The notes: a model not told the origin generated them from the letters alone. DNA of 64,000 bases from an uncultured bacterium (GCA_964627205.1 CAZVHI010000003.1:4830-68829), one strand, 5' to 3'; shown: positions 33,992-62,435, counted from the stretch's first letter. Numbers and translations: made by a program.

Positions 33992-34081
33992 TAGGCATAT
34001 AAATAGCTCTATTGCAACGAATTATAAAGGCGAAGAAATCAGGCCCATGACCCCTTGACAACTAATTCACAAGCTTAGTAT

Positions 34082-34098
34082 GTTAACGCTCGTTAACG
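34082..34098 (+). promoter_or_regulatory. Direct repeat of palindromic GTTAAC hexamers upstream of the TetR gene, a candidate operator
   Basis: gttaacg-ctc-gttaacg lies 33-49 nt upstream of the TetR ATG in an AT-richer intergenic region. Confidence 0.35.
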
Positions 34099-34130
34099 AC
34101 ACTTACTGACCTGAAATTCCGATTAGGCCA

Positions 34131-34778
34131 ATGAACCCACCCAACAGAACCCGGAGCGATGGCGGACCCACTCCCCCGAGTCGCCGGGAGTGCCTGATCC
34201 AGAACGCTTGCCAGCTCTTCTCCGAGGCCGGCTTCGAGGGCACGACCGTCCGGCAGATCGCCCGCCAGTGCGGGATCACCGAGGCGGCCATCTACAAGCA
34301 CTTCGACAGCAAGAAGCACCTCTACGAAGAGGTGATCCACAGCAAGTCCCACCAGCACCAGATCGCGGCGCATCTCAAGGCGAAGCGCGGAGAAGGCGAC
34401 ATCGAGGGCGTTCTCTACACCGTTGCGCGGCACATCCTGGACACGGCCCGCAACGATCCCGAGCTGATCCGCATGCTGCTGTTCAGCAGCCTCGAAGGCT
34501 TCCGCAGCTCAACGCTCCTCTATAAGGAGTTCCGCCAGCCCTACATCCTCTTTCTCCGCGAGGAGCTCAAGGAGAGGATGGTTGCGGGCGAGATCCGCGA
34601 GGTCAATCCCTTCATCACCAGCCGCTGCTTCGTGGGCATGGTGATGGACTGCGCGCTGAACGTGGAACTGTGGAACAACCTCGAGAGCACGACCTACTCG
34701 GCGGAAAACGTGATGCACAACAACGTGCCGATCTTCGCCAAGGGGCTGAGGGTAGATGGATCCGCGCCAGGCGCGTAG
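34131..34778 (+). CDS. TetR/AcrR-family transcriptional regulator
   Basis: N-terminal HTH TTVRQIARQCGITEAAIYKHFDSKKHLY. 215 aa. Directly upstream of the cytochrome cluster, like the TetR-family OrfR/OrfS of Geobacter pcc clusters. Confidence 0.8.
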   Translation: MNPPNRTRSDGGPTPPSRRECLIQNACQLFSEAGFEGTTVRQIARQCGITEAAIYKHFDSKKHLYEEVIHSKSHQHQIAAHLKAKRGEGDIEGVLYTVARHILDTARNDPELIRMLLFSSLEGFRSSTLLYKEFRQPYILFLREELKERMVAGEIREVNPFITSRCFVGMVMDCALNVELWNNLESTTYSAENVMHNNVPIFAKGLRVDGSAPGA

Positions 34779-34796
34779 CGGACCCGAGCACGGAGG

Positions 34797-36218
34797 ATGA
34801 GAAGCATGAAGAGAATCCTGCCGGCACTGGCCGTCCTAGCCCTGATCGCAGCCGGAATCCACGGCTGCACCAAGGAGCGCGACAGCAATCCCTTCGGCAC
34901 GGGGAACGGCGACGGCGGCGAGGTGGACTGCCTCGCCTGCCACGGGGACGAGGAAATGCTGCGCGAGCTCTTGCCCGTGGAGGAAGGCCGCGCCGCGGTC
35001 TACACCAGGGGGGATGGCTGAGGCGGCGAGGTTCCCCCGCTGGAAGCGTGGGAGAAGGTCTACATCGGCGGCGCCAACGGGAACGCCTTCCTGAACGACG
35101 AGCGTCACGGCCCCGGCGCCCTGAGCTGCCTGAACTGCCACGGGAGCGAGAACACGGTCGGCGACTACGGCGAGCAGGTCGACATCCACGAGGGCGTGGT
35201 GAACGACCCCAGCGCCATCGGCGCCTGCGACGACTGCCACTCGTCGATCGCGGCCGCCACCGCGAACAGCCTGCACACGAACCTCTGGGGCGAGAGGAAG
35301 CTCATCGAGCAACGCGGTCAGTGCAACATCGCCGACTACGAGGACGGCTTCAACGCCAAGTGCAACGGCTGCCACACCACCTGCGGCCAGTGCCACATCA
35401 GCCGGCCCAACAGCGTGGCCGGCGGCTTCGTCAGCGCGCACAAGTTCCGCCCGACGCCCCACATGACCGACCAGTGCACGGCCTGCCACGGCAGCCGCGT
35501 CGGCATCGACTACCTTGGCGAGGCGGGCGGCGGCCTCGAAGGGAACGCGCCCGACGTGCACCGCAACCTGGGCTACCGCTGCGAGTACTGCCACAGCGCC
35601 GAGGAGATCCACGGCGACGGCCAGAGCACGAACGCCTCCGGCCACTACGAGCACCGCTACGAGGTGGCTACCATGCCCCGCTGCGAGGACTGTCACGGCG
35701 ACCAGCAGGGCGGGAACGACTACCATGGCGCCACGCACTGGGGCGCGCTCCAGTGCCAGGCCTGCCACTCGCAGCCCTACAAGAACTGCAGCAACTGCCA
35801 CCTGGAGACAGCCTGGGCGCGGGGCTTCACCATCGATCCCAGCGTCGCGATGCTCAAGATTGGCCTGAACACCCAGCCCGAGCTGCGCGACTACGAGTAC
35901 ACGATCGTGCGCCACGTGCCCGTCGCGCACGACACCTACGAGGCCTGGGGCCTGACGCTGCCGGCCTACGACGACATCCCGAGCTGGAAGTACGCCTCCC
36001 CGCACAACATCCAGCGCTGGACGGCCCAGACCGACACCACCGGCATGGCGGTGGGCGACGTCACCTGCGCCACGGCCTGCCACGGCAGCGGCAACGGCAC
36101 CGACAGCTTCTTCCTGCGGGAGGTCGACCTCTACGAGGAGGACGGGACGACGCCCCTGCCAGACTACGGGGCCAATCTGCCATACGTCGTGGCGGACGAC
36201 TGGCCGCCGGAGTTCTGA
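34797..36218 (+). CDS. Lipoprotein multiheme cytochrome c (about 11 CxxCH/CxxxCH motifs) with one in-frame TGA at 35019-35021; either a selenocysteine recoding site or a nonsense mutation
   Basis: Signal peptide with lipobox LIAAGIHGC and the first CxxCH (CLACH) precede the TGA. The same frame stays open through CLNCH and CDDCH into the ORF-track ORF 35196-36218 (whose GTG start is internal). No ATG/GTG/TTG start exists between the TGA and the CLNCH heme motif, and the downstream part has no signal peptide of its own. Confidence 0.55.
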
Positions 36219-36331
36219 TCGCTTTGCGGCCCGGCGACGGGTCGCGGGTCTGCGGCTGCGCTAGTAAGCGGACCCGAACGTCGATGTGAACGAGAAGGGC
36301 CCGGGAAGGGCCTAACAAAGGAGAGAAAGCG

Positions 36332-38215
36332 ATGCGAATGCGTTGGAGCCTTCTTCTGCTGCCCTTGCTGGCTCTGGGTCTGACGATGGGTTGCTCCGAG
36401 AGCACGACCCCGGTCGACACGCTCACCCCCGCGGAGCAGTTCGACGCCATGGTCGCCGCGGCGGAGACCTACATCAACGACGATACCCAGTGCCCCGGCG
36501 TGATGGCCGCCACCGCGCTGCAGGCGGACCTGGACAACTACACGGTCATCGACATCCGCTCCGAGGCCGACTACGACGCGGGCCATATCCCGGGGGCCTA
36601 CCACTCGTCCTTGGGCACCCTGCTCGCCGACCTCGGCACGCGGGCCATCCCCACGGACCAGAACATCGTGGTGGCCTGCTACACGGGACAGACGGCCGGT
36701 CACGCCAAGATCGCCCTGGAGATGCTCTACCCCGCCATAGACATCTTCAGCCTCAAGTTCGGGATGGCCGCCTGGAACGAGACGCTCACCGCCAAGTGGG
36801 ACAACAACTGCAAGGATGAGCTGACCAATCCCGACCAGACCGACGAGAATGGCAATCTCACGACCCACGACTTCCCCGGTTTCGATACGGGCGTGACGAA
36901 CGTGGACGAAGTGGTCCCCGCCCGCGTGGCCTGGATGCTCGGCGAGGGATTCAAGGCCAAGTCCTTCGACCAGATCAAGGACAACCTCGACGACTACTTC
37001 ATCATGAACTACTTCGGCCAGGCGGACTACCTGGGCCAGGGCGGCAGCGGCGTGCCGGGACACATCCCCGGCGCCTTCCAGTTCACGCCCTACGCGAGCC
37101 TGGGCAATGAGCAGATGCTGAACAACCTGCCCACGGAGCAGGACATCGTCGTCTACTGCTGGACGGGGCAGCACAGCAGCCAGGTCACGGCCTACCTGAA
37201 CATGCTGGGCTACACGGCCTTCAGCCTCAAGTTCGGATCCAACTACCTCTTCCACAGCGACCTGACCGGCCACAAGTGGAGCGCGGGCGCGACCAACGCC
37301 TTCACGCTCGAGAACACGGTCACGGCGCCCTTCAGCGGTATGGCGACGCCCGGCGGCGCCTACGTCAACGGCGGCACCTGCCCCGGCGTGATACTGGCCA
37401 CCGACCTCCAGGCCGACCTGGAGAACTATACGGTGGTCGACATCCGTGACGCGGCCGACTACGACGCGGGTCACATCGAGGGTGCCATCAACTCCTCGCT
37501 GGGCACGCTGCTGGCCGACATCGACGCGGGCACGATCCCGACCGACCAGGACATCGTCGTGGCCTGCTACTCCGGCCAGACGGCGGGCATCGCCAAGATC
37601 GCCCTGGACCTGCTCTACGACGACATCGACATCTTCAGCCTCAAGTGGGGCATGGCCTCCTGGAACTCCAGCCTCACCGGTCCCTGGGACGGCAAGACCG
37701 GCGCCAACGGCAACAACCTGGGCAACCCCAGCCAGGATGACGAGAACTCGAACCTGACCCGTCACGGCTTCCCGAAGCTGGAGGGCTACGACGCGGCGAC
37801 GGTGCTGGAGGAGCGCGTGGCCTGGATGCTCGCGGAGGGTCTCCAGGGCGTGCTGTACGCGAACATCGACCCGGACGACTACTTCATCGTCAACTACTTC
37901 GGCTACGACGACTACATGGGCCAGGGCGGCAGCGGCGTGCCGGGGCACATCCCGGGCGCCTACCAGTTCACGCCGGCCGCCAGCCTCGAGATGGACCAGA
38001 TGCTCTACAACCTGCCCCTGGACGAGCAGATTCTCGTCTACTGCTGGACGGGTCAGACGAGCGCTCAGATCACGGGCTACTTGCGCATGTTGGGTTACGA
38101 TGCATATAGTCTGAAATTCGGCTCGAACAACCTGTTCTACGACGACCTGACGGGCCACAAGTGGAGCGCAGCGCAGACCAACGACTTCCCGCTCGTCCCC
38201 ACGGCGCTGCCCTAG
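36332..38215 (+). CDS. Lipoprotein with four rhodanese-like (sulfurtransferase) domains arranged as an internal tandem duplication
   Basis: Lipobox LGLTMGC. Two roughly 300-aa repeats, each with two rhodanese modules. Active-site loops CYTGQTA, CWTGQHS, CYSGQTA and CWTGQTS. Rhodanese signature DIRSEADYDAGHIPGA. Confidence 0.75.
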   Translation: MRMRWSLLLLPLLALGLTMGCSESTTPVDTLTPAEQFDAMVAAAETYINDDTQCPGVMAATALQADLDNYTVIDIRSEADYDAGHIPGAYHSSLGTLLADLGTRAIPTDQNIVVACYTGQTAGHAKIALEMLYPAIDIFSLKFGMAAWNETLTAKWDNNCKDELTNPDQTDENGNLTTHDFPGFDTGVTNVDEVVPARVAWMLGEGFKAKSFDQIKDNLDDYFIMNYFGQADYLGQGGSGVPGHIPGAFQFTPYASLGNEQMLNNLPTEQDIVVYCWTGQHSSQVTAYLNMLGYTAFSLKFGSNYLFHSDLTGHKWSAGATNAFTLENTVTAPFSGMATPGGAYVNGGTCPGVILATDLQADLENYTVVDIRDAADYDAGHIEGAINSSLGTLLADIDAGTIPTDQDIVVACYSGQTAGIAKIALDLLYDDIDIFSLKWGMASWNSSLTGPWDGKTGANGNNLGNPSQDDENSNLTRHGFPKLEGYDAATVLEERVAWMLAEGLQGVLYANIDPDDYFIVNYFGYDDYMGQGGSGVPGHIPGAYQFTPAASLEMDQMLYNLPLDEQILVYCWTGQTSAQITGYLRMLGYDAYSLKFGSNNLFYDDLTGHKWSAAQTNDFPLVPTALP

Positions 38216-38331
38216 GAAGTCCGATCCCCGGCCTCGCGCCGGCGATCGTGGTTTAGGATTTGGCTATAGCTGTCGACGGAAGAAGGGGGGCTCTGCCCCC
38301 CTTCTCTCCGGCACAAGGATAGGGTGCAAGA

Positions 38332-40314
38332 ATGCGAAACGGCGACACTCATCTGAAAACTGTTCTGGCGCTTCTGCTCGTGTCCATCATGTTCGCTCTC
38401 GCAGGCACGTCCGTGAGCGCGGAGGAGTGGAGCACCGACGACTGCGTGGACTGCCACGCGGAGCCCGACGAGGACACCGTCGAGGTGACGCGGGCACACC
38501 TGGCGGACGGCGTTCACGCCGACTTCGAGTGCATGGACTGCCACACGGAGATCGACGACCTGCCCCACGAGGAGGAGCTCGCACCCACCGACTGCGGCGA
38601 ATGCCACGAAGACGAGGAGGAGGTCTACACGAAGCACGGCCGCGGCGTCATCGGCGTGGACGACACCATCCCCACTTGTGTGGAATGCCACGGCACCCAC
38701 GACATCCGCGAAGTCGAGGACAAGGGATCGCTGGTCAACCCGCTGAACCTTCCCTCCACTTGCGGCACTTGCCACGAGGACGAGGCCTTCACCGAGGAGC
38801 AGCAGATCCGCTTCAAGCACCCGGTGCGGGTCTACGCCAACAGCGTCCACGGCCGCGCGGCCGTGGGCGGCATCTACTCGGCGGCCACCTGCAACGACTG
38901 CCACTCCACGGACGGCAGCGCGCACCAGATCCTGTCGCCCGGCGACATCCGCTCGACGATCAACCACTTCAACATCTCGGCGACCTGCGGGCGCTGCCAC
39001 AAGTACATCGAGCAGGACTACCGCGAGGGCATCCACGGCGAACTGACCGAGCGCGGCCAGGTGGAGTCGCCCATCTGCACGACCTGCCACGGCGAGCACA
39101 ACATCCTCCCCACCGACGACCCGCGCTCGCCGGTCAGCGCCCATCGTCTCGCCGAGGCCACCTGCACCCCCTGCCACGAGTCGGCCTCCCTGAACGAGAA
39201 GTACGAGCTGCCCACGGGCCGCCTACACTCCTTCCAGGACTCCTATCACGGGCTCAAGAGCAAGGCGGGCGATGTAACGGTGGCCAACTGCGCCTCCTGC
39301 CACGGCGCGCATCGCATCCTTCCGTCCACCGACGAGACGTCCACGATCTTCCCGGCCAACCTGCAGCGCACCTGTGGCGGCTGCCACCCCGAGATCTCGA
39401 TGGAGATCGCCCAGATGTCCATCCACGAGGCCGCGGGCCTGCATACGGGCATCGCGGGGCTCGTGCGCAAGATCTACCTCATCCTGATCTTCGTCGTGAT
39501 CGGCAGCATGGCCATCCACTGGCTCATCGACCTGCGCCACCAGATCAAGCAGGTCATGAACAAGAAGAACCAGGTGCGGCGCATGGACGGGGACGAGGTG
39601 GTCCAGCACTTCATCCTGGCCCTGTCCTTCACCGTTCTCGTGGTGACGGGCTTCTCCCTGCGCTTCTATGACTCCTGGTGGTCGGAGATGATGTTTGGCT
39701 GGGAGGGCGGCTACACCTTCCGCGGGACCGTGCACCGCTTCGCGGGCGTGGTGCTGCTGCTGGCATCAGTCTGGCACACGATCTTCCTGTTGACTGCGCG
39801 CGGGAGGATCTTCCTGAAGGACATGTGGCCGAGCTTCAAGGACTTCAAGCAGTTCATGCAGATGAATGCCTACAATCTCGGAGTGAGCAAGGACCACCCC
39901 CAGTTCGCGCGCTTCTCCTACGTGGAGAAGGCCGAGTACTGGGCGCTGGTCTGGGGCACCGTGGTGATGGGGATCACGGGCCTGTTGCTCTGGTTCGACA
40001 ACGTCGCGGTCAACTGGATGCCCAAGGGTGTGCTGGACGTGATGCTCGTGATCCACTACTACGAGGCCTGGCTGGCCTTCCTGGCCATTCTCATCTGGCA
40101 CATGTACTCGACTGTCTTCAGTCCCAAGGTCTACCCGATGAATCCCTCCTGGCTGACGGGCAAGATGCCGGAGTCCCAGTTCCTGGCTGAGCATCCCCTG
40201 GCAGTGGCGGCGAGCAACATCGACAAGATCGACTACATCAAGGCCCACCCCGAAGAGGGACGGGCCGGTACTGGCAATCCGGAGGGGAAGTCCGAGGAAG
40301 ACGCCGTCGACTGA
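38332..40314 (+). CDS. CbcL-like fusion: periplasmic multiheme cytochrome c domain (11 CxxCH) plus C-terminal membrane di-haem cytochrome b (FdnI/HydC-like) domain
   Basis: Signal/anchor LKTVLALLLVSIMFALAGTSVSA. Eleven CxxCH motifs from CVDCH to CGGCH. Then 4-5 TM helices with conserved His (HFILALSFTVLVVTGF, HRFAGVVLLLASVWH, VIHYYEAWLAFLAILIWH). Confidence 0.75.
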   Translation: MRNGDTHLKTVLALLLVSIMFALAGTSVSAEEWSTDDCVDCHAEPDEDTVEVTRAHLADGVHADFECMDCHTEIDDLPHEEELAPTDCGECHEDEEEVYTKHGRGVIGVDDTIPTCVECHGTHDIREVEDKGSLVNPLNLPSTCGTCHEDEAFTEEQQIRFKHPVRVYANSVHGRAAVGGIYSAATCNDCHSTDGSAHQILSPGDIRSTINHFNISATCGRCHKYIEQDYREGIHGELTERGQVESPICTTCHGEHNILPTDDPRSPVSAHRLAEATCTPCHESASLNEKYELPTGRLHSFQDSYHGLKSKAGDVTVANCASCHGAHRILPSTDETSTIFPANLQRTCGGCHPEISMEIAQMSIHEAAGLHTGIAGLVRKIYLILIFVVIGSMAIHWLIDLRHQIKQVMNKKNQVRRMDGDEVVQHFILALSFTVLVVTGFSLRFYDSWWSEMMFGWEGGYTFRGTVHRFAGVVLLLASVWHTIFLLTARGRIFLKDMWPSFKDFKQFMQMNAYNLGVSKDHPQFARFSYVEKAEYWALVWGTVVMGITGLLLWFDNVAVNWMPKGVLDVMLVIHYYEAWLAFLAILIWHMYSTVFSPKVYPMNPSWLTGKMPESQFLAEHPLAVAASNIDKIDYIKAHPEEGRAGTGNPEGKSEEDAVD

Positions 40315-40335
40315 CGGGCCGCTCGAGGGTCTACG

Positions 40336-40378
40336 AAAAACCGGGTTCGGCCAGCGTGGCCGAGCCCGGTTTTTCTTC
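40336..40378. terminator. Bidirectional rho-independent terminator between convergent cytochrome genes
   Basis: aaaaa-ccgggttcggcc-agcgt-ggccgagcccgg-ttttt: a 12-bp stem with one G-U pair, flanked by an A-run and a T-run. Confidence 0.65.
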
Positions 40379-40396
40379 GCCTGTCAAGAGCGGAGC

Positions 40397-40993
40397 CTAC
40401 TTGTCGTCGGCGGCCTTCCTCGTCTCGGCGTAGTTCTCGGGATAGGGGTGGGCGATCTCCTCCGACCGCTTCTCGTAGTCGAACTCCTTGAAGGTCGGGC
40501 TGTCGGAGTTGTGACAGGCCGTGCAGGTCTCCTCGGTCACCTCGAGGAGCCCCACCGAGGCGGCCTCGATCGCGCCATCGTAGATGCCCTTCATGGTCTT
40601 CTTCTTTTTGTAGCCGCTACCGGGACCGTGGCAGCTCTCGCAGGAGACGCCCTCCTCGAGCGTGATCTTCTGGGTCGCCAGGTCGGCCATGACGGGGAAC
40701 GCCGTCACGTGGCACTTCAGGCAATCCGCCTCTTCCTGCGGATTGCCGAGCCCCAATTCCGCGGCGATGGTCTTGGACTCTTCGCTGGCCAGGGTCGCGT
40801 AGGCGCCGGCGTGCACACCCTCGGACCAGGACAGGTACTGGGCACCAATCTTCTCCTTTTTGTGGCACATCTTGCACTTCTTGACGCCGACGTAGTTGTA
40901 CTCCTCCTCGGCCGCGAAGGCGAATCCAGCCAGTAGCCAGGTCAGAGCCAGGGCGCCAGTGAGAAGCGCCATGAGTGTTTTCTTCGCAGACAT
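40397..40993 (-). CDS. Periplasmic tetraheme cytochrome c
   Basis: Start at MSAKKTLMALLTGALALTWLLAGFAFAAEEEY (signal peptide). Four CxxCH motifs (CKMCH, CLKCH, CESCH, CTACH). The ORF-track extension to 41374 was rejected. Confidence 0.7.
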   Translation of the reverse strand: MSAKKTLMALLTGALALTWLLAGFAFAAEEEYNYVGVKKCKMCHKKEKIGAQYLSWSEGVHAGAYATLASEESKTIAAELGLGNPQEEADCLKCHVTAFPVMADLATQKITLEEGVSCESCHGPGSGYKKKKTMKGIYDGAIEAASVGLLEVTEETCTACHNSDSPTFKEFDYEKRSEEIAHPYPENYAETRKAADDK

Positions 40994-41061
40994 CACTTGC
41001 AGTCCTTTCTTCTCGAGTTCTCCCGCTCTCCCCGCGGGTCGCTTGCCCCGCCCGTCCCGTC

Positions 41062-41706
41062 TTATTCGCCCATGCCCGGATGGCAGCCGCCGCAGAGACT
41101 CGGGGGCAAGCCCTCGTGACAGAGGATGCAGCTCCCGAGATCCGCCCGGCCCTCCATCGCGTGCCGGCCGCCGCTGCCGGAGACCCACTCCGCGGAGTAG
41201 TGGTCGCTCGGCTGAATGCCGAAGCTGGCGTGGCAGTCCGTGCAGTAGCTTCGCAGGTCGTGGCAGCTCGCGCAGTCCTCGCTTCCCTTTAGCGCCGTCA
41301 TGGCGTGCGTGTAGAACCAGTTGCGGTCGTGCGCCAGGAAGTCCACGTTCTCGCCGTGGTGGCACATGCTGCACTCCTCCGACTCGCGATGACAGAGGGC
41401 GCAGTCCATGTCTCCGCCGCGCACATTATACTGATGTCCGTGCAGAAAGTCTCCCCAGTGGCTGCTGGGCCTCTCGGGCAGTGTCACCAGCACGTTCTCG
41501 TCCTCGTCGTGGCAGTCCAGGCAGACGCCGGGGCCGGGCAGCGCCGCTCGCCGCGGCAGCCCGCCGCCCGCGAGGGAGTGGCATTCGGTGCAGTCCATCT
41601 CCGCGTCTTCGAGATGAACCTGATGGTCGAAGACATCGGCACCGATGCCGCCGACGGGAACGAGCATCAGGAGCGCGGCCGCCAAGATCCAGGCTGTCTT
41701 ACTCAT
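41062..41706 (-). CDS. Periplasmic octaheme cytochrome c
   Basis: Signal peptide MSKTAWILAAALLMLVPVGGIGA. Eight CxxCH motifs (CTECH, CLDCH, CALCH, CSMCH, CASCH, CTDCH, CILCH, CGGCH) in 214 aa. Confidence 0.75.
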   Translation of the reverse strand: MSKTAWILAAALLMLVPVGGIGADVFDHQVHLEDAEMDCTECHSLAGGGLPRRAALPGPGVCLDCHDEDENVLVTLPERPSSHWGDFLHGHQYNVRGGDMDCALCHRESEECSMCHHGENVDFLAHDRNWFYTHAMTALKGSEDCASCHDLRSYCTDCHASFGIQPSDHYSAEWVSGSGGRHAMEGRADLGSCILCHEGLPPSLCGGCHPGMGE

Positions 41707-43060
41707 CGCTCACCTCCTGCCCCGGCGCGACTCGGAAGCGATAAGCGACGCGGCCGAGGAACCTCAGCTGGTGCTCGGCCCGTGGGTTCCTGAGCAACTC
41801 GACGGCGGTGGTGACATCGAAGCGGTCCGCGAGAGTGGCATCCAGCCCCAGGCGCGTGGCCAGGGACTCGTCGTCGACCACGAGCTCGTCCTCGAGGTCG
41901 TCGACCTCGCCGTAGCGATAGTAGACCTTGTTCAGGTCCAGCCAGAGGGCGACGCCATCGGTCAGTTCGTAGCGGACCTTGCCGTAGATCCCGTCCTGGT
42001 CGCCCCCGAAGCCGCGCTGCAGGCGGTAGCCGAAGGCGTAGCCGGGCCGCGAGAGGCCAATGCTGAGGCCGTCTCCACGCTTTTCGCCCTCGGGGAAGAC
42101 CTCGATCAGGTGCAGGTTGATCGTCCAGCCCGGAAGCAGGCGGCAAGGCTGCGACATGTGGGCGCGGACCTCGTCGGTGAGCTGTAGAAAGTTGCCCGTG
42201 AACCAGATCCGATCCTGGAAATATCGGGCGATGTAGGACTGGTCGGCCGACGGCGCGAGGCCCTCGCGCCGGTTCCACGCCAGGCTCGCCGAGCCCTGCT
42301 TAAATCGGTAGTCGAGGCGCAGGTGACGGTGGTAGGCCACCTCCTGCCCCAGGTCGTAGCGGTGCTCGTAGCGCAGGGCCACCGAATCGCGGGGACGCCA
42401 CAGGGCCAGCAGGCCCAGGCGGCGCCCCTCCTCCTCGCCCCCGCGGAAGAGACGGGCGGCGCTGACGCCGAAGCCCAGCCCCGCGGGCAGGGCGGCGCTG
42501 CGATAGGCGGCGCCCCAGAGGCCCGACTCGTCGAAGGCGTCGGTTGCCAGACCCTCGAAGCCGTCGCCCGCGGGATCCAGGAAGCCCCGCGTGCCGCCGA
42601 AGAGGGTCAGACGCCCCAGCCGCGCGTCGGTGAGCTGGAGGCGCGCCCCGTCGAGGCGACCGCTGCCGACGCCTGCGTAGACCCACTGGCGCCCCAGCGC
42701 CAGCAGCGCGTTCGGCCGGGGCCGAAAGCGCAGGTAAGCATGGTAGGCGCGCGCGCGCGACTTGCCGATCCCCTCTTCCAGCACCTCGCCCCGGTGCGTA
42801 CCCAGCCAGTGCAGCGAGAGCGAGGGGTGTCCCAGCTCACGCGCGTCGAGGGAGACGCGCTGGATGAAGTCCCAGTGCTTCTCCTGACCGGGCGGGAAGG
42901 TCTCGTAGACGAAGGACGAACTGGTGACGCGACCGTCCAGCTCCAGGGCCTTCGCCCCGCCGAAGGTCATGGCCCCCGCCGCGATTGCGAGCAGGAAGAC
43001 CGTGCGCCGTTTTCGCCAGGCCCCCGCGGGCGACGGATCGTATCGTTTCAACATCCTCAT
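41699..43060 (-). CDS. Predicted outer-membrane beta-barrel protein, a candidate porin partner of the cytochromes
   Basis: Signal peptide. 453 aa rich in alternating aromatic/Gly/Arg beta-strand-like segments. Its stop overlaps the octaheme cytochrome start by 8 nt. No named domain recognised. Confidence 0.5.
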   Translation of the reverse strand: MRMLKRYDPSPAGAWRKRRTVFLLAIAAGAMTFGGAKALELDGRVTSSSFVYETFPPGQEKHWDFIQRVSLDARELGHPSLSLHWLGTHRGEVLEEGIGKSRARAYHAYLRFRPRPNALLALGRQWVYAGVGSGRLDGARLQLTDARLGRLTLFGGTRGFLDPAGDGFEGLATDAFDESGLWGAAYRSAALPAGLGFGVSAARLFRGGEEEGRRLGLLALWRPRDSVALRYEHRYDLGQEVAYHRHLRLDYRFKQGSASLAWNRREGLAPSADQSYIARYFQDRIWFTGNFLQLTDEVRAHMSQPCRLLPGWTINLHLIEVFPEGEKRGDGLSIGLSRPGYAFGYRLQRGFGGDQDGIYGKVRYELTDGVALWLDLNKVYYRYGEVDDLEDELVVDDESLATRLGLDATLADRFDVTTAVELLRNPRAEHQLRFLGRVAYRFRVAPGQEVSDE

Positions 43061-43171
43061 TGCCCCCTTCGCTTATCCAGGACCAGGATTATGGCAACAA
43101 TATAAGCCCGGTCGACGGCAGGTCCAGGGATTTCGAACACATTGAGTGAACAGGACTTACCACCGCGCCAC

Positions 43172-47703: not shown

Positions 47704-50700
47704 CTACTTCGCGCCCACCTTCGTCACTCCGATGGTCTCGTAGACCGACATCTTGCCCTCGGTGTCCCAGACCAGGACGCCGATGCGGTGATCGCCGTCC
47801 TCCCAGCCGTTGATGTTGAAGGTGGTCATGAAGTAGCCGTCGTACTGGCCGCCGACCTCGGGATCCCACGCGATGTCGAAGGGCGGGTCGGCCGGCATCG
47901 GCCAGCCGTAGTCGTCGATGTAGAACTCCACGTAGTCGATCTCGGTGCAGTGCCAGTCGGAGGGGTTCACGACGATGTCGATCACGGACTGCTCGTCGGC
48001 GTTGAGCTCGTCACCCTGCTGCGGGGTGATCCAGTCCTCGGGAGCCATGAAGGGTCCCTCGCCGTCGACGATGTTGATCGTGTGCGTCACCTGCGCCGTG
48101 TTGCCCTCGGTGTCCTGCACCCAGACCGTGGCTTCCAGGATGGTCCCGGCCGCCAGGCACTCGGTGGAGAGCATGTAGTCGAAGCCCTCCAAGACTTCCG
48201 GAGGCGCCGCGTCGTTCACCGGGTTCGGATAGTTCGAAACGAAGACCTGGCTCAGGAGCACCGGCGGAATCCCGGTGACGTCGACCACCTCGAAGGTGCC
48301 GTCGGTCCAGTACCAGATGTCGCTCACGTCGAAGCTGAACTCGATCTCCGTGCCGCCCTCGTCGCTGAGGTCGGCGGGCAGGAAGTCGGTGATATCGGGC
48401 GGGTCGTCGCCGTAGATGTGCAGCTCGTTGTCGGTCGAGCTGATCCCGCACTCGTCCTCGATGGCGTACTGGACGCAGAGGTCACCCACGCCGTAGTCCT
48501 CGGTGTGGATGATCACCGGGATGTTGTCCGGGTTGTCCTCCTCCCAGGGCATCACGCAACCCCAATCCCAGTAGTAGTTCGAGATGAGGTCGCCGTCGTT
48601 GGAGAAGCTGCCCTGATAGGTGACGTCGGTCCCGAACAGCACCCAGGCTTCCGGGCCGCCACTGACGTTGGTCCAGAAGGCCAGATCCCATGGCACGTCG
48701 TTCTTCGTCACGCAGATGCTGCCGTCGAAGCCGACCTCGTAGGAGTTGCCGTTGGGCTGCGCGAGGTCCCAGACCCTGGCGCCGAAGCAGAACTCCGTAC
48801 CCGCGGGATAGATCATCGGGTCGTAGCTCCACATGTAGAACGCTTCGCCGCCGATGATCGAGTTGTCCGTGCCGACCAGAGTGTAGCCCCCGCCGTCGAT
48901 GGAGACGTAGAAGTCCACGCGGTCGAGATTGCCATCACCGTAGTTGTCCGCGATGCCGTCGACCATGAGCCCCAGTGGCGAGCTGATGCAGGTCGTGCCG
49001 TCAGGCGGTCCGACCCAGCCCATCGTCGGCGGTGTGTTGTCGATGTAGATGTCGGAGGTGTCGAAGGCGCCCTCGCCGATGTTGCCGGGCGTGGTGCCGT
49101 CGCCGGTGTACTCGTCCTCCACCGTCACCCCGATGGTGTAGACACCCTCGCTGGCGTAGGCGTGGGTGGCCGCGAAGACGTCCTCGCCGAGGTACTCCGT
49201 CCCCGTGCCGTCATCCCAGTCGACCCAGATGTAGATGTGCTCGTTGTCGTCCGAGATGTAAGGCCCGAAGTCCACCACCGCCTGGTAGGGGCTCGGCTGG
49301 AACACACCGTAGTCGCCCGGCAGGTTCACCACCGGCGCGTCCGACTTGTAGACGATGAAGGTATCCGACCCGGTCAGGCCGCCGAGGTCGTAGGCACGGG
49401 CCTCGATCTCCACGAGACCGCCGGGGTAGCCGGTGAAATCGATGTCGACCGGGAAGTTGGGCTGGGTCCAGGACTCGCCCATCTTCACGCCGCCGACGTA
49501 GTACTCCACCTTCTCGACCTCGGGCATCGTGCCGCGGTCGTAGGTGCCGGCCGGATCCACCTCGAAGGGCTCGAGGCCGGTCAGCACGTCGCCCGGACGC
49601 GGCACCAGGAAGAGCACGTCGGGCGTCGTCACGTCCTCGATCTCCACGTAGACGGAGGTGGTCCGCTCCAGGTCCGTGTTGTCCCTCACGAGGAGAGTGA
49701 CCCAGTAGCCGCCGTAGCCGTCGCCGGAGGCGAAGTAGTCCCAGTCCACCGGATCCGGATCGGTCGTGTCCAGATCGTAGGAGCCGTCGCCGTTGAAGTC
49801 CCACCGATAGAGGTCGATGGCGCCGCCCGCGCCGCCGTTCTCGTCGTCGTGGGACGCGAAGGCGGAGAAGGACAGCTGCAGGGACGTCTCGTCGGTCCAG
49901 TCGCCGTTCACCGGCTCCGGATCGATCTCCGCGTGGGGCGGATCGCTCTTGTAGACGTTGATCGTCACGAGCGGGAAGGACATGTTCGGCGGCGGTACCG
50001 TGAAGTCGTAGGCGATGGCGGTCATCGAGTACGGGCCGCTGTCCATGCCGTCCCAGTCGAAGTCGAAGCCGTGGACGACCGCGTTGTCCCACGGATCGGG
50101 GTTCGTCCAGCTCAGGGTCTCCGAGAAGCTCCCGCCGTCCTCGATGACCAGCTCCAGCATGTCCAGGATGCCGGCGTCGCCGTCGTGCTCGTCGATGGCG
50201 TCGACGATGTAGTCCATGTTCGCGCCGTACTGGGCGCCCCAGCCCTCGATGTCGAGCGCCAGATCCATGGGCTCGCCGTCATCGGCCTCCAGGCTGTTGA
50301 CCACGGGGTTCGTGGTGTCGGCGATGGAAACGCGGCAGACCGCCTCGTCGGTGAAGCCCGCGCTGTTCTCCACGGTCACGCGGCAGTCGTACATGCCGAT
50401 CGCGTAGGTGTTGGTCGCCGTGGGAAGGGTCGTGGTCTCGTCGATCACGCCGTTGTCGTCGAAGTCCCAGTGGTAGAAGTCGATCTGGTCGCAGTCGTCG
50501 TAAGCCGTCACCGTGAATGTGATGTCGCTCGGGTTGGTCTCGCCCGCATAGCGGTCGGAGCCGAACTCCGTGCCGTAGGGAGGCCCGCCGAGCTTGGTCA
50601 CGAGGATCTGGTTCACGCCGCCGGCGCTGGTGTTCCCGTTCACGTCAGTGACCGTGGCCCAGAGGTAGTACTCCTGGCAGTCCCAGCCGGCCGTGTTCCA

Positions 50701-53700
50701 GATGAAGCACCAGCCGTGCTCCCACTCGTCGTCCGCGTACAGGGTCTCGATGACCGTGCCGGCCGCGTAGAAGGTGATGTAGTCGACCTCGGGGCCGCTG
50801 TCGCGGTCGATGATCGGGCCGATCACACAGATCTCGGTGGTGAGCTGGAACTCGTCGGGAGTGGCCTTGATCTCCACCGCGTCCGGTGCAGTGCAGTCGG
50901 AGATCTCTACCACCACCGGGTCGCTCCAGGCGATGCGGCCGGTCGCGTCGGTGCCGATGAGCCGCGCCGAGTAGAAGCCGTACTCGGGGAAGTGCCAGAC
51001 CCAGGGCAGCTCCGGCATGTTCTCGATCGACTCCTCCGGGAGCTCGTCCGCGTCCACCCAGTTGGGATCGCCGAGACCCGTGAAGGGACCGGAGAAGCTC
51101 CAGCCGTAGCCGAACTCCGCGACGCCGTTGTCGTCGACGATCGACCAGCCGTCGAAGGCGACCGGGATGCCGCCGTTGACGTAGTCGTAGGGCGCGCAGT
51201 CGTTCGTGTAGGTGATGTCCGGCAGGGTCACGCAGGGCAGGTCGCTTTTCACGACCTCATCACTCGCCTGGGTCCAGTTACCGGCCACGTCGTAGATGCG
51301 GTAGTAGATCTCCCAACCCGCGGCCGAATCGACCCAGTTCTCGCCGCAGTACGGCTCGTAGTCGAAGGGCTCGACGCCGTCGATCTGCCAGACGTAGGGG
51401 CTCGACGTGTGGGAGAAGTCCCCGAACTCGCCATTTGCCCAGCCATAGTAAGTGAGCGTGCCGAAGTCGAGGTCCGAATAGCAGGCCCATCCCATCCAGT
51501 CCTCGGCGGCGTGGATCACGTCGGCCGTCCCGCTGACCAGGTGGGTCCCGGGGTAGCCCTCGAAGTCCACCACGTCGAAGTCGGTGATGACGGGCGCGTC
51601 GTTCTCCATCGTCAGCGTCCAGGTCTGCATGACGTAGGGCAGCTGGTAACCGGTGTCGGTCGTCTCGCGGACGCGAACGGCCAGCGTGTAGTCCACGCAC
51701 CACTCGTCGTAGTAGTCGAGCCACACGTTCTCGCCCGTCTCGTCCACCGAGAAGCTGCCGCTGTACTCGAGGTCCCACTCCACCAGGTAGCTGCTGGGCG
51801 TCGGGTTGCCGCCCCAGACGTTGTCGTCGGTGTAGTTCAGGCTGAAGTTGGGCTCGAGCTCGTTGGCCCAGGCGTGCTCGCCCACCGCGAAGCCGCGATC
51901 GGGCTGTCCGCCGATGTGGCGCGTGATGCCGGTGATGACCGGCAGGTCGGACTTGTAGATCCGGCGCGTCGCCATCGGGCCGTTGTTGCCCGAGTTGTCG
52001 GTGGGCAGGGCCAGGAGATCGTAGTAGTCGCCGGTCGCCGGCAGGTCCTCGCCCTCGAAGTTGCAGGTCCAGGCCGCGCCGTCGGCGTCCGTGCAGATCT
52101 CGCCGGTCGCGCCGCCGTTGACCTGGTCGTAGCTGAAGGCCACCTGCGCGATCGCGGGGAACCAGTTGTCACGGTCGGAGCCGGACACGGCGAGGGCCAC
52201 AGGCACGTTGTGGTCGCCGATCACCGAGTCGACCGCCGGGGCCGTGAACCAGATATCCGGGCCGATCACGTCTTCGATGAAGATGTCCTGACAGCCGGAA
52301 CCCACGATGTCGTAGATGTCCCGGACGTCGACGCAGACCTGGTAGTCCCCGTAGCCGAGCGTGAAGTCGAAGTCGACCATGTTGTAGGAGTCGCCCTCGT
52401 ACCACACGCCCTGCTCGAGCTCGAGGCCGCCGGTCGTGTAGACCGTGGCCGCGGGATCGGTGGGGCAGGTCCACATGAAGTCCAGCGGCGCCTGCTGCTC
52501 GTGGTTGTCGTCCCAGGACTCGTGGGCGTCGATCCGGACGATCCATTCCTCCGGATCGAGCACGGTGTAGGGACCAAAGAAGGGCACCGGCGCGCAGGTC
52601 TTGATGAAGTCGACCAGCGAGCTCAGGTCCGTCTGTCCGTTGGACAGGTAGGCCTTGGCGTAGATGCGAAGCTCGCCGCCCTCCATGTCGGTGATGTCGT
52701 AGGCCACGCTCCAGCCGCCGGCCTCGCTCGTATCCTCGCCGAAGTAGGTCTCGTCACCGGCGAAGAAGAACTGCACCTTGTCGACGGTGATGTCGCGCTG
52801 GGCGATGGCCGCCTTGGGGTCCTCGCTGCGCGTGGGCGGCAGGAACTCGACGGTGGCCGTGAAGTCCACGGGGCCGCAGAGCAGCTCGTCCGGCGCGGGC
52901 GTGGTCACTGTGACGAGGATGTCCGCGAAGCAGTCCACGATGAAGGGCACCGCGGCGCTGTTGTAGCTGGCCTCGTCGGAGAGGTAGGCCACCGCGTGCA
53001 CGTTGTGGCCGCCCTCGGGCATCTGCGCGGCGCAGGGATCGTACTGGAAGGTCCACTCGGGGCCCTCGTAGTCGATGCCGAAGGGGGCGGTCTCGGAGTC
53101 GAAGTAGAACTCGACCCGCTCGACGTCGGGCAGCTCGCGCGTGTCGAAGGTCACGCTCGCGGTGAAGATGAAGCTGCCGCTGATGTCATGGTTCTCGATG
53201 GGCGCGATGATCGCCACGACCGGCTCCGGACAACTGTAGGCGATGTCAGTGAGCTCGTCGTTGCCGACGTTGCCGCACTGGTCCGTGGCCGCCGCGCCGA
53301 TGGTGTAGTCGCCATCGCCGTCGAACCAGGCCGCGTCGACGACGAAGGAGTAGGTGTTCTCGCCGAGATCCGTGTAGTCGCAGGACACCGAGTCGGCATC
53401 GACGAAGAGGACGAGGCTCGCGAGAGTGTTCGCTTCCACCACCTCGACGAGCAGTTCGTCGCCGGAGCAGAAGAGCTGATCACCCTCGGGCGGCGTGATC
53501 GCCACCACCGGCGCCGTCTCGTCGTTCCAGACATCCACCGTGAACACGGGGTTGTCCGCGTCGCCGTGGTTGCCGGCCGTGTCGAAGGCATCGATCGTGA
53601 TCTCGACCCCCAGAGCCGCGGCGATCGGGTCGATGCCGGTGAAGGTAAAGTCGTATGCGCTGTCGCTCGTCCCGGGCTCGTCGACCGCAACCTCGACGCC

Positions 53701-53940: not shown

Positions 53941-54402
53941 CTTTTCTCTCCTTACCACAGTCCTTGAGCTTCGGTAGCTCTTAGTGGAACTCCGGCAACT
54001 TTCCCTCACCCGTCCGGGAGAAGGTGTAATTGTATTCCCGTGCAACTCGTTATCTGCGGGCTCTAAACCCGCGTATCTCCTCGCCACATACCGGCATGGC
54101 AGAAGGCGCCACCCGCCGAGTGGACGCTAACCTGGACAGCAAACTCCTTTGAAAAACCTTTGTCAAGGAGTTTAGGACCCGGCGGTTGCCATTCATGATC
54201 CCGCTGGGATCGGGCTCTCCGCCCTCTCGGGTCGTTCCCGTTTCTAGCGGATGAAATGAATTCAAGCAACTGTTTTCGTCCCTAGTTAAGCCGGCGTAAA
54301 AGATGCGGAATACGCACTTGCTCCCCGCCGCGCTCAGGCGCTAAGTATGTCTCGTGGCGCCGAGTTCCCCGGCGTCGAATCCAAGCCCGGGAGCTGCGTC
54401 CG

Positions 54403-61651: not shown

Positions 61652-61664
61652 CGTGCGCTCCTTT

Positions 61665-62435
61665 CTAGTCGCCGCTGATGATGTCCTTGAGAATGTTGCC
61701 GCCCAGGCCGGCGATTCCCTTCCGCTCGCCCTGGGTGCCGCCGTGCTTGAGGCCGCTGGCGTGGATCACACGGTCGGCCAGGCGGCTGAAGGGCAGGGTC
61801 TGCAGGTAGACGGTGCCCGGCCCGCGCAACTGCGCGAAGAAGAACCCCTCGCCGCCGAAGAGGACGTTCCGGAAGCCGCCGATGAACTGGATGTCGTAGT
61901 CCACGCTCTCGTGGAAGGCCACCAGGCAGCCCGTGTCCACGCGGAGCGTCTCGTCGGGCTTCAGCTTGCGCTCGATCACGGTGCCGCCCGCGTGCACGAA
62001 GGCCAGGCCATCACCGCTGAGGCGCTGGAGGATGAAGCCCTCGCCGCCGAAGAGGCCCGCGCCGAGCTTCTTGGTGAACGCGATGGAGATGTCGATGCCG
62101 TAAGCGCTGCAGAGGTAGGCGTCCTTCTGGCAGAGGTAGTTGCCCCGGTCGGCGAGGTCCAGGGGGATGATCTTGCCGGGATAGGGCGCGGCGAAAGCCG
62201 CGGCGGCGCGGCGGCGGGCCTTGTTCTCGAAGGTGGTGATGAAGAAGCTCTCGCCCACGATGGCCCTCTTCAGGCCCTTGAGGAGTCCGCCCTGGGTGGA
62301 CGTATCCATCGTGATGCCGTCCTCGAGGTAGAGCATCGCGCCCGCCTCGGCGTGGACGGCCTCCTCGGGGTCCAGCGTGATCACCACGGCCTGCATGTCG
62401 TCGCCGCGGATCTCGTAGTCTACTTCGTGGACCAT
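61665..62435 (-). CDS. AIM24/TIGR00266-family protein (DUF124)
   Basis: Start at MVHEVDYEIRGDDMQAVVITL. Repeated GGEGF segments and overall pattern like the AIM24 family. About 256 aa. Confidence 0.6.
   Translation of the reverse strand: MVHEVDYEIRGDDMQAVVITLDPEEAVHAEAGAMLYLEDGITMDTSTQGGLLKGLKRAIVGESFFITTFENKARRRAAAAFAAPYPGKIIPLDLADRGNYLCQKDAYLCSAYGIDISIAFTKKLGAGLFGGEGFILQRLSGDGLAFVHAGGTVIERKLKPDETLRVDTGCLVAFHESVDYDIQFIGGFRNVLFGGEGFFFAQLRGPGTVYLQTLPFSRLADRVIHASGLKHGGTQGERKGIAGLGGNILKDIISGD

Follow-up and report, generated by a model that had tools for sequence, protein, structure and literature searches.

The closest known system to the locus described here is the extHIJKLMNOPQS cluster of Geobacter sulfurreducens, which encodes MccSep (ExtKL). 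MccSep is a selenocysteine (Sec)-containing pentahaem polysulfide reductase that is essential for S0 respiration and also reduces selenite (PMC13510729). Beside its gene lie those for ExtH, a rhodanese lipoprotein, and ExtI, a porin; cytochromes with 12, 10, and 4 haems and a cytochrome b are encoded in the cluster as well (PMC5877670; PMC6148476). Reduction of selenite and tellurite requires ExtI, whereas Fe(III) reduction does not (PMC5877670), and a TetR regulator is present in some Geobacter-type ext clusters (PMC6148476). NCBIfam gives the Geobacter ext genes the title "selenite/tellurite reduction operon." Sec-containing members also occur in TIGR04315, the octahaem tetrathionate reductase family (PMC13188914).

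Gene content of the locus

The window is the whole 64-kb stretch of DNA that was analyzed. A sequence-only reading of it had listed a module of cytochrome, rhodanese, regulator, and barrel genes at 34082-43060, and all of these genes were found by Pfam and motif searches, at or very near the positions that it had given. The features are as follows.

34055..34084, + strand: promoter-like site 5' of the TetR gene (TTGACA, 18-nt spacer, TATGTT; 10/12 matches; consensus scan, pattern match only)
34131..34778, + strand: TetR-family regulator, 215 aa (Pfam TetR_N, E=8e-17)
34797..36218, + strand: CytA, 473-aa lipoprotein with 11 haem c sites, candidate selenoprotein (haem motifs, lipobox)
35019..35021, + strand: in-frame TGA, putative Sec residue 75 (column conserved among loci)
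35032..35054, + strand: SECIS-like hairpin (paired-stem conservation, covariation)
36332..38215, + strand: Rhod4, 627-aa lipoprotein with four rhodanese domains (Pfam Rhodanese, E=3e-43, 4 stretches)
38332..40314, + strand: CbcL-like fusion, 660 aa, periplasmic domain with 11 haem c sites joined to a cytochrome b domain in the membrane (CxxCH, Pfam Ni_hydr_CYTB)
40340..40371, both strands: terminator-like hairpins separating two convergent operons (consensus scan, pattern match only)
40397..40993, - strand: Tetra, 198-aa periplasmic tetrahaem cytochrome, c554 family (Pfam Cytochrome_C554, E=4e-16)
41062..41706, - strand: Octa, 214-aa periplasmic octahaem cytochrome (8 CxxCH, signal peptide)
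41699..43060, - strand: OMP, 453 aa, predicted outer-membrane beta-barrel of ~22 strands (AlphaFold2, Foldseek)
43088..43126, - strand: promoter-like sites 5' of the barrel operon (consensus scan, pattern match only)

The same reading had claimed about 34 haem c sites, and 34 were counted across the four cytochrome genes (11 + 11 + 8 + 4), in addition to the cytochrome b domain. When all six frames of the window were searched, 33 of the 35 CxxCH motifs lay inside these four genes, so the clustering of cytochromes is not due to chance. The NPFNPxT motifs that had been noted were recovered in the ORFs at 2-2764, 3-872, and 9020-10672. No further sulfur-metabolism genes were present in the 64-kb window, and the flanks of the module consisted of housekeeping genes.

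Comparison with ExtHIJKL and MccSep

The locus shares with the ext cluster a UGA codon, read as Sec, in a multihaem cytochrome c, where it lies in a Gly-containing loop with DGU in both; an adjacent rhodanese lipoprotein; an outer membrane barrel protein of ~45 to 50 kDa; additional cytochromes with 4, 8 to 12, and 10 to 11 haems; and a connection to the quinol pool through a membrane cytochrome b. The neighborhood of MccSep, a rhodanese lipoprotein together with an outer membrane porin, thus has its counterpart around CytA. Although ombB-omaB-omcB had been proposed as the Geobacter analogue of this module, extHIJKL (rhodanese ExtH, porin ExtI, Sec cytochrome ExtKL) fits better because a rhodanese is the most constant partner of CytA among the 80 related loci compared.

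In sequence, the proteins of this module bore no detectable resemblance to MccSep, ExtH, or ExtI. CytA had no match at E<=10 to MccSep (9WT8/9WT9) by phmmer or family profile, with both entries present in the searched copy of the PDB, and none at E<=10 to the ExtKL model NF040886 in NCBIfam. Rhod4 scored 16.7 bits against the ExtH model NF040901 (cut-off, 200) and falls outside that family. MccSep is a soluble periplasmic protein with 5 haems, and its Sec belongs to an Ig-like domain at the C terminus. CytA is a lipoprotein with 11 haems and a putative Sec close to its N terminus, at residue 75. The link to quinol is a cytochrome c/b fusion here versus a Rieske/cytochrome b pair in ext. The haem-ligating Cys of MccSep, C239, has no conserved equivalent in CytA, so the chemistry of CytA may differ from that of MccSep. 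The taxa differ as well, with MccSep found mainly in Desulfobacterota and Nitrospirota and the relatives of CytA carrying the labels Krumholzibacteriia, Fibrobacteraceae (record label), Gemmatimonadota, Calditrichia, and KSB1.

CytA also lies outside TIGR04315, against which it scored 22.5 bits (cut-off, 375). Foldseek and profile searches gave no link between CytA and the octahaem tetrathionate reductase of Shewanella oneidensis (PDB 1sp3), which has 8 haems compared to the 11 of CytA.

CytA as a candidate selenoprotein

The 11-haem lipoprotein cytochrome of the sequence-only reading is present, but it is not a plain ORF, since an in-frame TGA at 35019-35021 had been overlooked. This codon is at residue 75, between haems 1 and 2 of the 473-aa protein, in the context GDG-U-GGEVPPLEAWEKV. 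Among the related loci, a TGA at the same column was found in 72 by motif search and also in L058 and L066, so that at least 74 of the 80, which span many phyla, have it. Its surroundings are conserved as G-[D/E]-G-U-G-G, the motif [DEG]G-U-GG-x-V being present in at least 74 of the 80, and sequence is conserved on both sides of the codon in related loci. None of the 80 closest loci had Cys at this column, and nine distant relatives did (P0131, P0137, P0156, P0185, P0188, P0189, P0203, P0206, and P0166). P0131 reads GEG-C-GG, and the Cys is followed by GG in eight of the nine and by SG (CSG) in P0166. In some other relatives W, Q, R, Y, or yet another residue takes this column, so Sec is dispensable in some members of the family. 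Since TGA is the stop codon of 14 of the 36 predicted genes in the window, it has not been globally reassigned.

A SECIS-like hairpin begins 12 nt past the UGA, with a core stem formed by 35034-35040 and 35046-35052 and a UGGAA loop. Across a 73-sequence alignment, the 7-bp stem was paired in 88.6% of cells, compared to 21 to 52% when one partner was slid along the alignment. One stem pair (29-39) was CG in 31 distinct sequences and AU in 29, demonstrating covariation, and none of 500 shuffled controls attained the observed score. The hairpin was the minimum-free-energy fold in the window; its single-sequence fold energy z-score was not significant.

Taking these features together, we read the in-frame TGA of CytA as a selenocysteine codon, at which Sec would be inserted, and the CytA family as an unannotated, widespread candidate selenoprotein family. 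The family is covered by none of the NCBIfam models and selenoproteome lists that were compared. Most database homologues of CytA begin just past the TGA. That the TGA is instead a true stop, leaving either a pseudogene or a 74-aa monohaem lipoprotein and a separate downstream cytochrome, is very improbable. Gene callers do annotate two ORFs here (71 and 339 aa in public gene calls), the fold energy is undistinctive, and neither selA, selB, selD, nor tRNA-Sec was found in the 64-kb window, which has no tRNA at all. Against this stand the recurrence of the codon at one column across phyla with both flanks conserved, the Cys homologues at that column, and the covarying hairpin. Moreover, the segment of CytA past the TGA contains 10 haem motifs that need export but lacks its own signal peptide, so a downstream-only product could not mature into a c-type cytochrome.

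Other features of CytA are also conserved in the 73 Sec-type sequences. Its haem motifs, 10 CxxCH and a conserved C424xxxCH429, are all retained, and lipobox Cys24 is kept in 99%. No Cys beyond the haem motifs and lipobox was conserved at >=60%, and only 10 non-motif His residues were invariant for the 11 haems. This shortfall fits one haem with unusual ligation and an enzyme-like character.

A second candidate selenoprotein is encoded elsewhere in the window, a member of the AhpC/TSA-Redoxin family with a W-x-x-U-x-x-C motif and a TGA at 60698-60700, and its presence also speaks for the Sec reading of CytA.

The rhodanese partner and recurrence of the module

Rhod4 belongs to rhodanese family PF00581, with four domains that each have a Cys loop (catalytic Cys at C116, C276, C412, and C571), and carries the lipobox LTMGC. 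Its two halves are 65% identical to each other. The rhodanese is no odd extra component of the module: a rhodanese gene is immediately 3' of CytA in 71 of the 80 loci, and in P0196 a CytA-type cytochrome and two rhodanese domains form one polypeptide.

The other genes accompany this pair less often. A TetR homologue is directly 5' of the cytochrome gene in 42 of the 80 loci, and CbcL-like homologues are found alongside CytA in 10 of the 80, as well as in L084. Tetra homologues with 42 to 47% identity lie within the same operons in L039, L049, L062, L075, L076, and L077. In nine other loci (L039, L049, L058, L061, L072, L074, L075, L076, and L084) a barrel gene is beside a homologue of Octa with 11 to 12 haems, and in all nine the Octa-type gene directly follows the barrel gene. 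Within 10 kb of most CytA-rhodanese pairs in the 80 loci there was no barrel, octahaem, or CbcL-like gene, and the block at 38.3 to 43.1 kb was absent altogether from the closest relatives, L001, L003, and L038. The barrel, the 8- to 12-haem cytochrome, the tetrahaem cytochrome, and the c/b fusion nevertheless rejoin the CytA-rhodanese pair in several distant lineages. The grouping of these genes into a recurrent module was borne out by L075 and L076, which are from distant lineages and have CytA, Rhod, OMP, Octa, Tetra, and CbcL-like genes together as operons on one strand, and by variants in L074, L061, L058, L039, L049, L062, and L084. Because the module recurs in distant lineages, the prospect that homologs of its genes are never co-localized does not hold.

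The CbcL-like fusion and the predicted barrel

In Geobacter, FdnI/HydC-type cytochromes b fused to a multihaem c domain are described as quinol oxidases (CbcL), and CbcL has 9 reported CxxCH motifs. The fusion encoded here has the CbcL architecture that had been assigned to it, a periplasmic multihaem c domain followed by a HydC/FdnI-type cytochrome b, and the likeness is one of architecture, with 11 CxxCH motifs versus 9. The cytochrome b domain matched Pfam Ni_hydr_CYTB (PF01292; E=1e-12) over residues 424-597, and the match to the NCBIfam formate dehydrogenase gamma subunit (E=2e-15) was under the cut-off of that model. Tetra has 4 CxxCH motifs and a signal peptide.

Modeling agreed with the prediction that OMP is an outer membrane beta-barrel. 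The AlphaFold2 model, made with an alignment of only 5 sequences, has a signal helix and then 22 strands (pLDDT, 74; pTM, 0.67), and its Foldseek matches were large outer membrane barrels, FimD/PapC ushers and OprD/Occ porins, with E values down to 1e-10 and TM scores of 0.4 to 0.54. The protein had no Pfam or NCBIfam match. The barrel and Octa genes share 8 nt, where the end of the former runs into the start of the latter.

These genes raise the alternative of a Pcc/Mtr-type conduit whose electron acceptors are electrodes or insoluble Fe(III)/Mn(IV) oxides, in which CytA would be an OmcB-like surface wire and the rhodanese an accessory. As in known porin-cytochrome conduits (OmbB-OmaB-OmcB; MtrCAB), the gene for a predicted large barrel (~22 strands) lies beside that of a periplasmic multihaem cytochrome, here an octahaem one, with translational coupling between the two, and another multihaem cytochrome is a lipoprotein. 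The CbcL-like fusion, a putative quinol oxidase, fits a conduit as well. We nonetheless consider a conduit unlikely. The OmcB, OmaB, OmbB, and MtrA, MtrB, and MtrC families were unmatched, the cytochromes giving only sub-threshold MtrC-domain matches in Pfam and NCBIfam. Unlike the conduit cytochromes, CytA has a putative Sec and a rhodanese as its companion, and a conserved catalytic-type Sec/Cys with an obligate rhodanese partner is foreign to wire cytochromes. In the window CytA and the barrel gene belong to separate operons, most CytA-rhodanese pairs have no neighboring barrel, and ExtI is dispensable for Fe(III) reduction.

Proposed function

Reduction of sulfur (polysulfide or elemental sulfur) is likelier than a metal conduit because CytA, a candidate selenoprotein, nearly always has a rhodanese partner. 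We infer the substrate, the direction of electron flow, and the placement of CytA and the rhodanese in the periplasm or at the surface, and give about even chances to the module being a quinol-fed, Sec-dependent reductase of sulfane sulfur in which CytA is the terminal enzyme and works with Rhod4. In such a system, the CbcL-like fusion would draw electrons from the membrane quinol pool, and the tetrahaem and octahaem cytochromes would move them across the periplasm to CytA. The rhodanese Cys residues would be loaded, as persulfides, with sulfane sulfur supplied by polysulfide, elemental sulfur, or thiosulfate, and the Sec75 selenolate, on its flexible Gly-rich loop, would attack the S-S bond of the rhodanese persulfide. 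The haem chain would then reduce the Se-S adduct, and sulfide would be released.

Wolinella succinogenes has a periplasmic rhodanese-like protein, Sud, that serves polysulfide reductase Psr as a polysulfide-sulfur transferase. Like Sud, the exported rhodanese could carry sulfane sulfur to a respiratory reductase, but it is a four-domain lipoprotein, and its partner would be a Sec multihaem cytochrome rather than a molybdoenzyme.

Operation in the oxidative direction, with sulfide, polysulfide, or thiosulfate oxidized at or outside the outer membrane and electrons passed to the quinone pool, is decidedly unlikely. CbcL-type b/c fusions are described as quinol oxidases in Geobacter, although cytochrome b/c fusions could in principle work in either direction. 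The sole characterized Sec multihaem cytochrome is a reductase, and terminal oxidase, Sox, and Sqr genes are absent from the window. On the other side, multihaem sulfur enzymes of the His/Cys type, TsdA among them, work in both directions (cited in PMC13510729), and growth of Acidithiobacillus on metal sulfides induces an exported rhodanese (cited in PMC6148476).

The sequence-only reading had offered metal oxides, polysulfide, and selenium oxyanions among its candidate substrates; the extHIJKL analogy and the rhodanese linkage favor the latter two, and metal oxides are less favored. It is somewhat improbable that the same Sec-cytochrome/rhodanese enzyme acts mainly on selenite or tellurite, in detoxification or respiration, or on tetrathionate or thiosulfate. 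The selenite activity of MccSep, the involvement of ExtI in selenite and tellurite reduction, and the NCBIfam title of the Geobacter genes point to the oxyanions, and the nearest solved fold to CytA, octahaem tetrathionate reductase, along with the weak TIGR04315 match, points to tetrathionate. Rhodaneses are classical thiosulfate sulfurtransferases, and were thiosulfate the substrate, the rhodanese would split it and CytA would reduce the sulfane half.

The cytochrome cluster comprises two convergent operons

Between 34 and 43 kb, the window was found to hold two convergent operons, one on each strand, with the following genes.

34131-34778, plus strand: TetR regulator (gene calls and Pfam)
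34797-36218, plus strand: CytA, lipoprotein cytochrome with ten CxxCH motifs and a conserved CxxxCH
36332-38215, plus strand: Rhod4, rhodanese lipoprotein with four domains
38332-40314, plus strand: CbcL-like fusion of an 11-CxxCH cytochrome c and a cytochrome b domain (Ni_hydr_CYTB)
40397-40993, minus strand: Tetra, tetrahaem cytochrome of the c554 family
41062-41706, minus strand: Octa, octahaem cytochrome, the start of which overlaps the OMP stop by 8 nt
41699-43060, minus strand: OMP, signal-peptide protein

The sequence-only reading had described a Geobacter pcc-like porin-cytochrome electron-transfer module with a CbcL-like quinol oxidase and a quad-rhodanese lipoprotein, and all of its genes were recovered, with 34 haem c sites (11+11+8+4). 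Four cytochrome genes account for 33 of the 35 CxxCH motifs present in all six frames of the window. Promoter-like sites upstream of both operons and terminator-like hairpins in the convergent gap of 82 bp were detected by consensus pattern match only. The flanks consist of housekeeping genes encoding a tricorn-type protease, a CCA/polyA polymerase, an FAA hydrolase, an M42 peptidase, and an ABC-F protein.

The two halves of Rhod4, a tandem duplication, are 65% identical, and the protein has four catalytic Cys loops. OMP had no Pfam or NCBIfam family match; AlphaFold2 predicted 22 beta-strands after a signal helix (pLDDT 74, pTM 0.67, from an alignment of just 5 sequences), and Foldseek matched this model to large outer-membrane barrels, namely, FimD/PapC ushers and OprD/Occ porins, at TM 0.4-0.54. 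The best NCBIfam match of Tetra was to the C-terminal cytochrome domain of "UshA-like (seleno)protein" NF041198 (E=8e-19, below the cut-off), another selenium-linked family.

An in-frame TGA in CytA points to selenocysteine

Residue 75 of CytA is encoded by a TGA at 35019-35021 (context ...YTRGDG-TGA-GGEVPPLEAWEKV...), which was absent from the sequence-only reading. When 80 related loci, all from species-representative genomes, were compared, a TGA was found at the same column in at least 74 of them, within the motif [D/E/G]-G-U-G-G-x-V-x-x-L-E-A-W-E-K-V. Among the labels of these loci are Krumholzibacteriia, "Fibrobacteraceae", Gemmatimonadota, Latescibacterota, Eisenbacteria, Calditrichia, KSB1, Ignavibacteria, Marinimicrobia, Myxococcales, and Phycisphaerae. 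Cys was present at the Sec column in none of these 80 closest loci and at exactly that column in nine more distant full-length relatives, eight of which keep the next Gly-Gly; protein representative P0131 reads GEG-C-GG. The Cys variants were found by exhaustive profile search; when the N-terminal 150 residues were used as query in a word-indexed protein search, nothing matched at an E of ≤0.001.

The signal peptide and the lipobox Cys24, which is 99% conserved, precede the TGA, and the part of CytA after it contains ten haem-attachment motifs and no signal peptide. Because these haem motifs need export and the only signal peptide lies before the TGA, this arrangement points to readthrough as selenocysteine.

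A 7-bp hairpin starts 12 nt past the UGA (stem 35034-35040 with 35046-35052, loop UGGAA). Across 70 distinct sequences, the stem was paired in 88.6% of cells, compared to 21 to 52% when the 3' partner was slid. One stem pair is CG in 31 sequences and AU in 29; in it, the synonymous third base of an Ala codon covaries with the middle base of a variable codon three codons upstream. The observed score was reached by none of 500 shuffles. Single-sequence RNA folds 3' of the UGA had unremarkable energies and no significant z-score, and the case for the hairpin therefore rests on comparative covariation.

Taken together, the conserved TGA, the Cys homologues, the covarying hairpin, and the export logic point to a selenocysteine codon, and we infer that Sec is inserted in CytA. 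That the TGA is instead a true stop codon, or CytA a pseudogene, is very improbable given these four lines, even with public gene calls that present CytA as two ORFs (71 aa and 339 aa) and with no tRNA or Sec-machinery gene found within the window. Global reassignment of TGA (genetic code 4 or 25) was ruled out, since TGA serves as the ordinary stop for 14 of the 36 predicted window genes.

At the Sec column, some CytA relatives have W, Q, R, Y, or another residue; we observed TGG in L040, Q in L041, and R in L072 among the related loci and W in the representatives P0068, P0070, P0152, and P0165. In relatives with Trp or another non-Cys residue, the flanking motif is often degraded, and TGG is one step from TGA. 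At least one W variant is genuine rather than a product of code-4 translation, since L040 has a real TGG. Relatives with neither Cys nor Sec may belong to lineages in which Sec decoding was lost and the protein is kept just as an electron carrier.

The CytA family is conserved and systematically misannotated

In a comparison of 73 Sec-type sequences, the lipobox, Lys87 (90%), and each of the 11 haem motifs proved to be conserved. Ten non-motif His residues are invariant for eleven haems, and no conserved free Cys was found. In the predicted structure of the full-length homologue P0068, residues 1-37 and 60-74 had pLDDT values below 50; these stretches are the N-terminal part and the loop directly before the Sec column.

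At least 531 candidate loci were found in species-representative genomes, mostly from uncultured phyla. Approximately 100 of the best 120 database homologues of CytA begin directly after the TGA, as do many cluster representatives from the exhaustive search, and in public data (loci L081 to L083 and the protein match list) the family appears as an ORF of 71 to 81 aa and another of 340 to 390 aa. This is a systematic annotation error, which would be mended if the Sec assignment is confirmed. Family members are named "hypothetical protein" by NCBI and "thiosulfate/3-mercaptopyruvate sulfurtransferase" by JGI, and as a consequence of this splitting and naming, metabolic reconstructions of sulfur and selenium cycling miss them. 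The JGI name, given to many members, is probably explained by the cytochrome-rhodanese fusion seen in P0196 (715 aa), in which a CytA-type cytochrome carries two rhodanese domains at its C-terminal end (Pfam E=1e-37). In P0165, a fragment resembling a rhodanese active-site loop (VVVCYTGQTAG) lies ahead of the cytochrome, where Pfam made no call. We found no paper describing the CytA family.

A rhodanese gene is the most frequent partner of CytA

To count linkage, the window proteins were compared by tblastn with the 80 related loci. A rhodanese gene lies directly downstream of CytA in 71 of them, and several of the rest are cut off by the end of a contig. On the upstream side, 42 loci have a TetR gene. 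The remaining components were matched in a minority (CbcL-like, 10; Octa, 12; Tetra, 7; OMP, 2), with ORF-level blastp placing OMP in more loci than these two. The loci with extra components come from distant lineages and carry the genes in single-strand operons, with the following orders.

L075 and L076: CytA-Rhod-OMP-Octa-Tetra-CbcL
L074: CytA-Rhod-OMP-Octa-CbcL
L061: CytA-Rhod-OMP-Octa-CbcL, the CbcL-like gene seen as fragments
L058: CytA-Rhod-OMP-Octa, then the contig end
L039 and L049: OMP-Octa-(x)-Tetra-CytA-Rhod-CbcL
L062: as L039 and L049, no OMP ORF matched

In L084, a relative with an OMP 63% identical to that of the window, CytA (TGA-split), Rhod, OMP, and Octa share one strand and the CbcL-like gene is divergent.

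In the closest relatives, L001, L003, and L038 (TetR 67 to 74% identical), the rhodanese gene adjoins the FAA hydrolase gene and the window block 38332-43060 (CbcL-like, Tetra, Octa, and OMP) is missing, indicating that this block is accessory in the lineage of the window; it reflects either an insertion there or a loss in the relatives. In L039, L049, and L062 (approximately 12.5 to 20 kb in each), CytA-rhodanese is followed by far larger CbcL-like proteins, of 860 to 913 aa with 19 CxxCH motifs, and further cytochromes with 17 CxxCH motifs are present. The electron-input side is therefore highly variable.

The module resembles the Geobacter ext cluster in parts and not in sequence

Components of the Geobacter sulfurreducens cluster extHIJKLMNOPQS (PMC5877670; PMC6148476)
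ExtH: rhodanese lipoprotein
ExtI: OM porin-like protein
ExtJ: small protein, function not assigned
ExtKL: pentahaem cytochrome with in-frame UGA
ExtM: 12-haem cytochrome
ExtN: 10-haem cytochrome
ExtO / ExtP: Rieske protein / cytochrome b
ExtQ: membrane protein
ExtS: 4-haem lipoprotein

ExtKL is MccSep, a Sec polysulfide reductase essential for S0 respiration that was published in August 2026 as the first Sec multihaem sulfur reductase described and occurs mainly in Desulfobacterota and Nitrospirota (PMC13510729). Its C-terminal Ig-like domain has a D-G-U-P loop with Sec325, which adjoins a His/Cys-ligated haem (PMC13510729). The window module matches the ext cluster part for part in components but shows no detectable homology to it: models of ExtKL, ExtH, and ExtI had no match to window proteins, and searches of PDB with CytA and its family profile returned no MccSep match at an E of ≤10 with the MccSep entries 9WT8 and 9WT9 present in the searched set. 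CytA differs from MccSep in haem number and Sec position and, unlike MccSep, is lipoprotein-anchored and has no conserved ligating Cys. The two systems would share a logic of Sec, haem chain, rhodanese, OM barrel (predicted in the window), and quinol-linked cytochrome b.

Orthology to ExtH, ExtI, or ExtKL and membership in the octahaem tetrathionate reductase (OTR) family were each ruled out by model scores. OmcB-like identity failed in the same way. The cluster proposed by the sequence-only reading stands, and its interpretation is supported in part. A May 2026 review of selenoproteomes lists only four haem-related selenoprotein families, namely, ExtKL, the GSU2204 family, UshA-like proteins, and the OTR family (PMC13188914), and CytA lies outside all four. 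The principal result is a putative, unannotated Sec multihaem cytochrome family with a rhodanese partner, and the locus points to a second Sec multihaem family with no detectable sequence similarity to MccSep. If this is confirmed, Sec-haem catalysis would have arisen by convergence, and CytA would serve as a sulfur-reduction marker gene in the lineages carrying it.

Proposed function of the module

The most likely reading, to which we give about an even chance, is that the module reduces sulfane sulfur in a Sec-dependent reaction fed by quinol. Quinol would be oxidised by the CbcL-like fusion and the electrons relayed by Tetra and Octa. Sulfur from polysulfide or S0 would be carried as persulfides on the rhodanese Cys residues, comparable to Sud, which reportedly passes polysulfide sulfur to Psr in Wolinella. 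Sec75, on its Gly-rich loop, would attack the S-S bond, and the haem chain would reduce the resulting Se-S adduct, releasing sulfide. Another chalcogen substrate (selenite, tellurite, tetrathionate, or thiosulfate) is unlikely but deserves some weight; MccSep also reduces selenite, less efficiently (PMC13510729). Operation of the same redox chain in the oxidative direction seems to us quite improbable.

We infer the localisation of CytA and Rhod4. With Octa inside it, the barrel may pass electrons to a CytA/Rhod4 pair exposed at the surface, for extracellular S0 reduction; alternatively, by analogy to ExtI, it may be a substrate porin. The metal-oxide conduit of the sequence-only reading would use the same barrel and cytochromes, and with the OmcB-like identity lost and a rhodanese gene next to most CytA genes we hold it to be improbable. 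A fuller version of the sulfane sulfur reading is tentative and rather doubtful: CytA would be a new, widespread family of Sec 11-haem lipoproteins that evolved independently of Geobacter MccSep. Paired with a rhodanese lipoprotein at the surface, it would lie outermost on a barrel-octahaem conduit and carry out extracellular reduction of polysulfide or insoluble elemental sulfur. If true, Sec-dependent sulfur respiration would extend to many uncultured lineages, including MAGs labeled Krumholzibacteriia, Gemmatimonadota, Latescibacterota, Eisenbacteria, Calditrichia, KSB1, Ignavibacteria, and Marinimicrobia.

A second candidate selenoprotein and other features of the window

At 60368-61765 on the minus strand, two same-frame ORFs are parted by a single TGA at 60698-60700 (context ...KVLMINFWHPT-TGA-SYCKHEMPHL...). 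The readthrough product matches AhpC/TSA (E=3e-19) and Redoxin (E=1e-16), the TGA falls at the U position of a classic W-x-x-U-x-x-C redox motif, and an 8-bp hairpin begins 13 nt downstream of it. This protein is the second selenoprotein candidate of the window.

The NPFNPxT motifs noted in the sequence-only reading were found in three plus-strand ORFs (2-2764, 3-872, and 9020-10672), approximately 80 residues ahead of the C-termini, and are a possible sorting signal. An ORF of 2140 aa at 47704-54126 on the minus strand, with only Big_7 and PKD domain matches, probably encodes a cell-surface protein.
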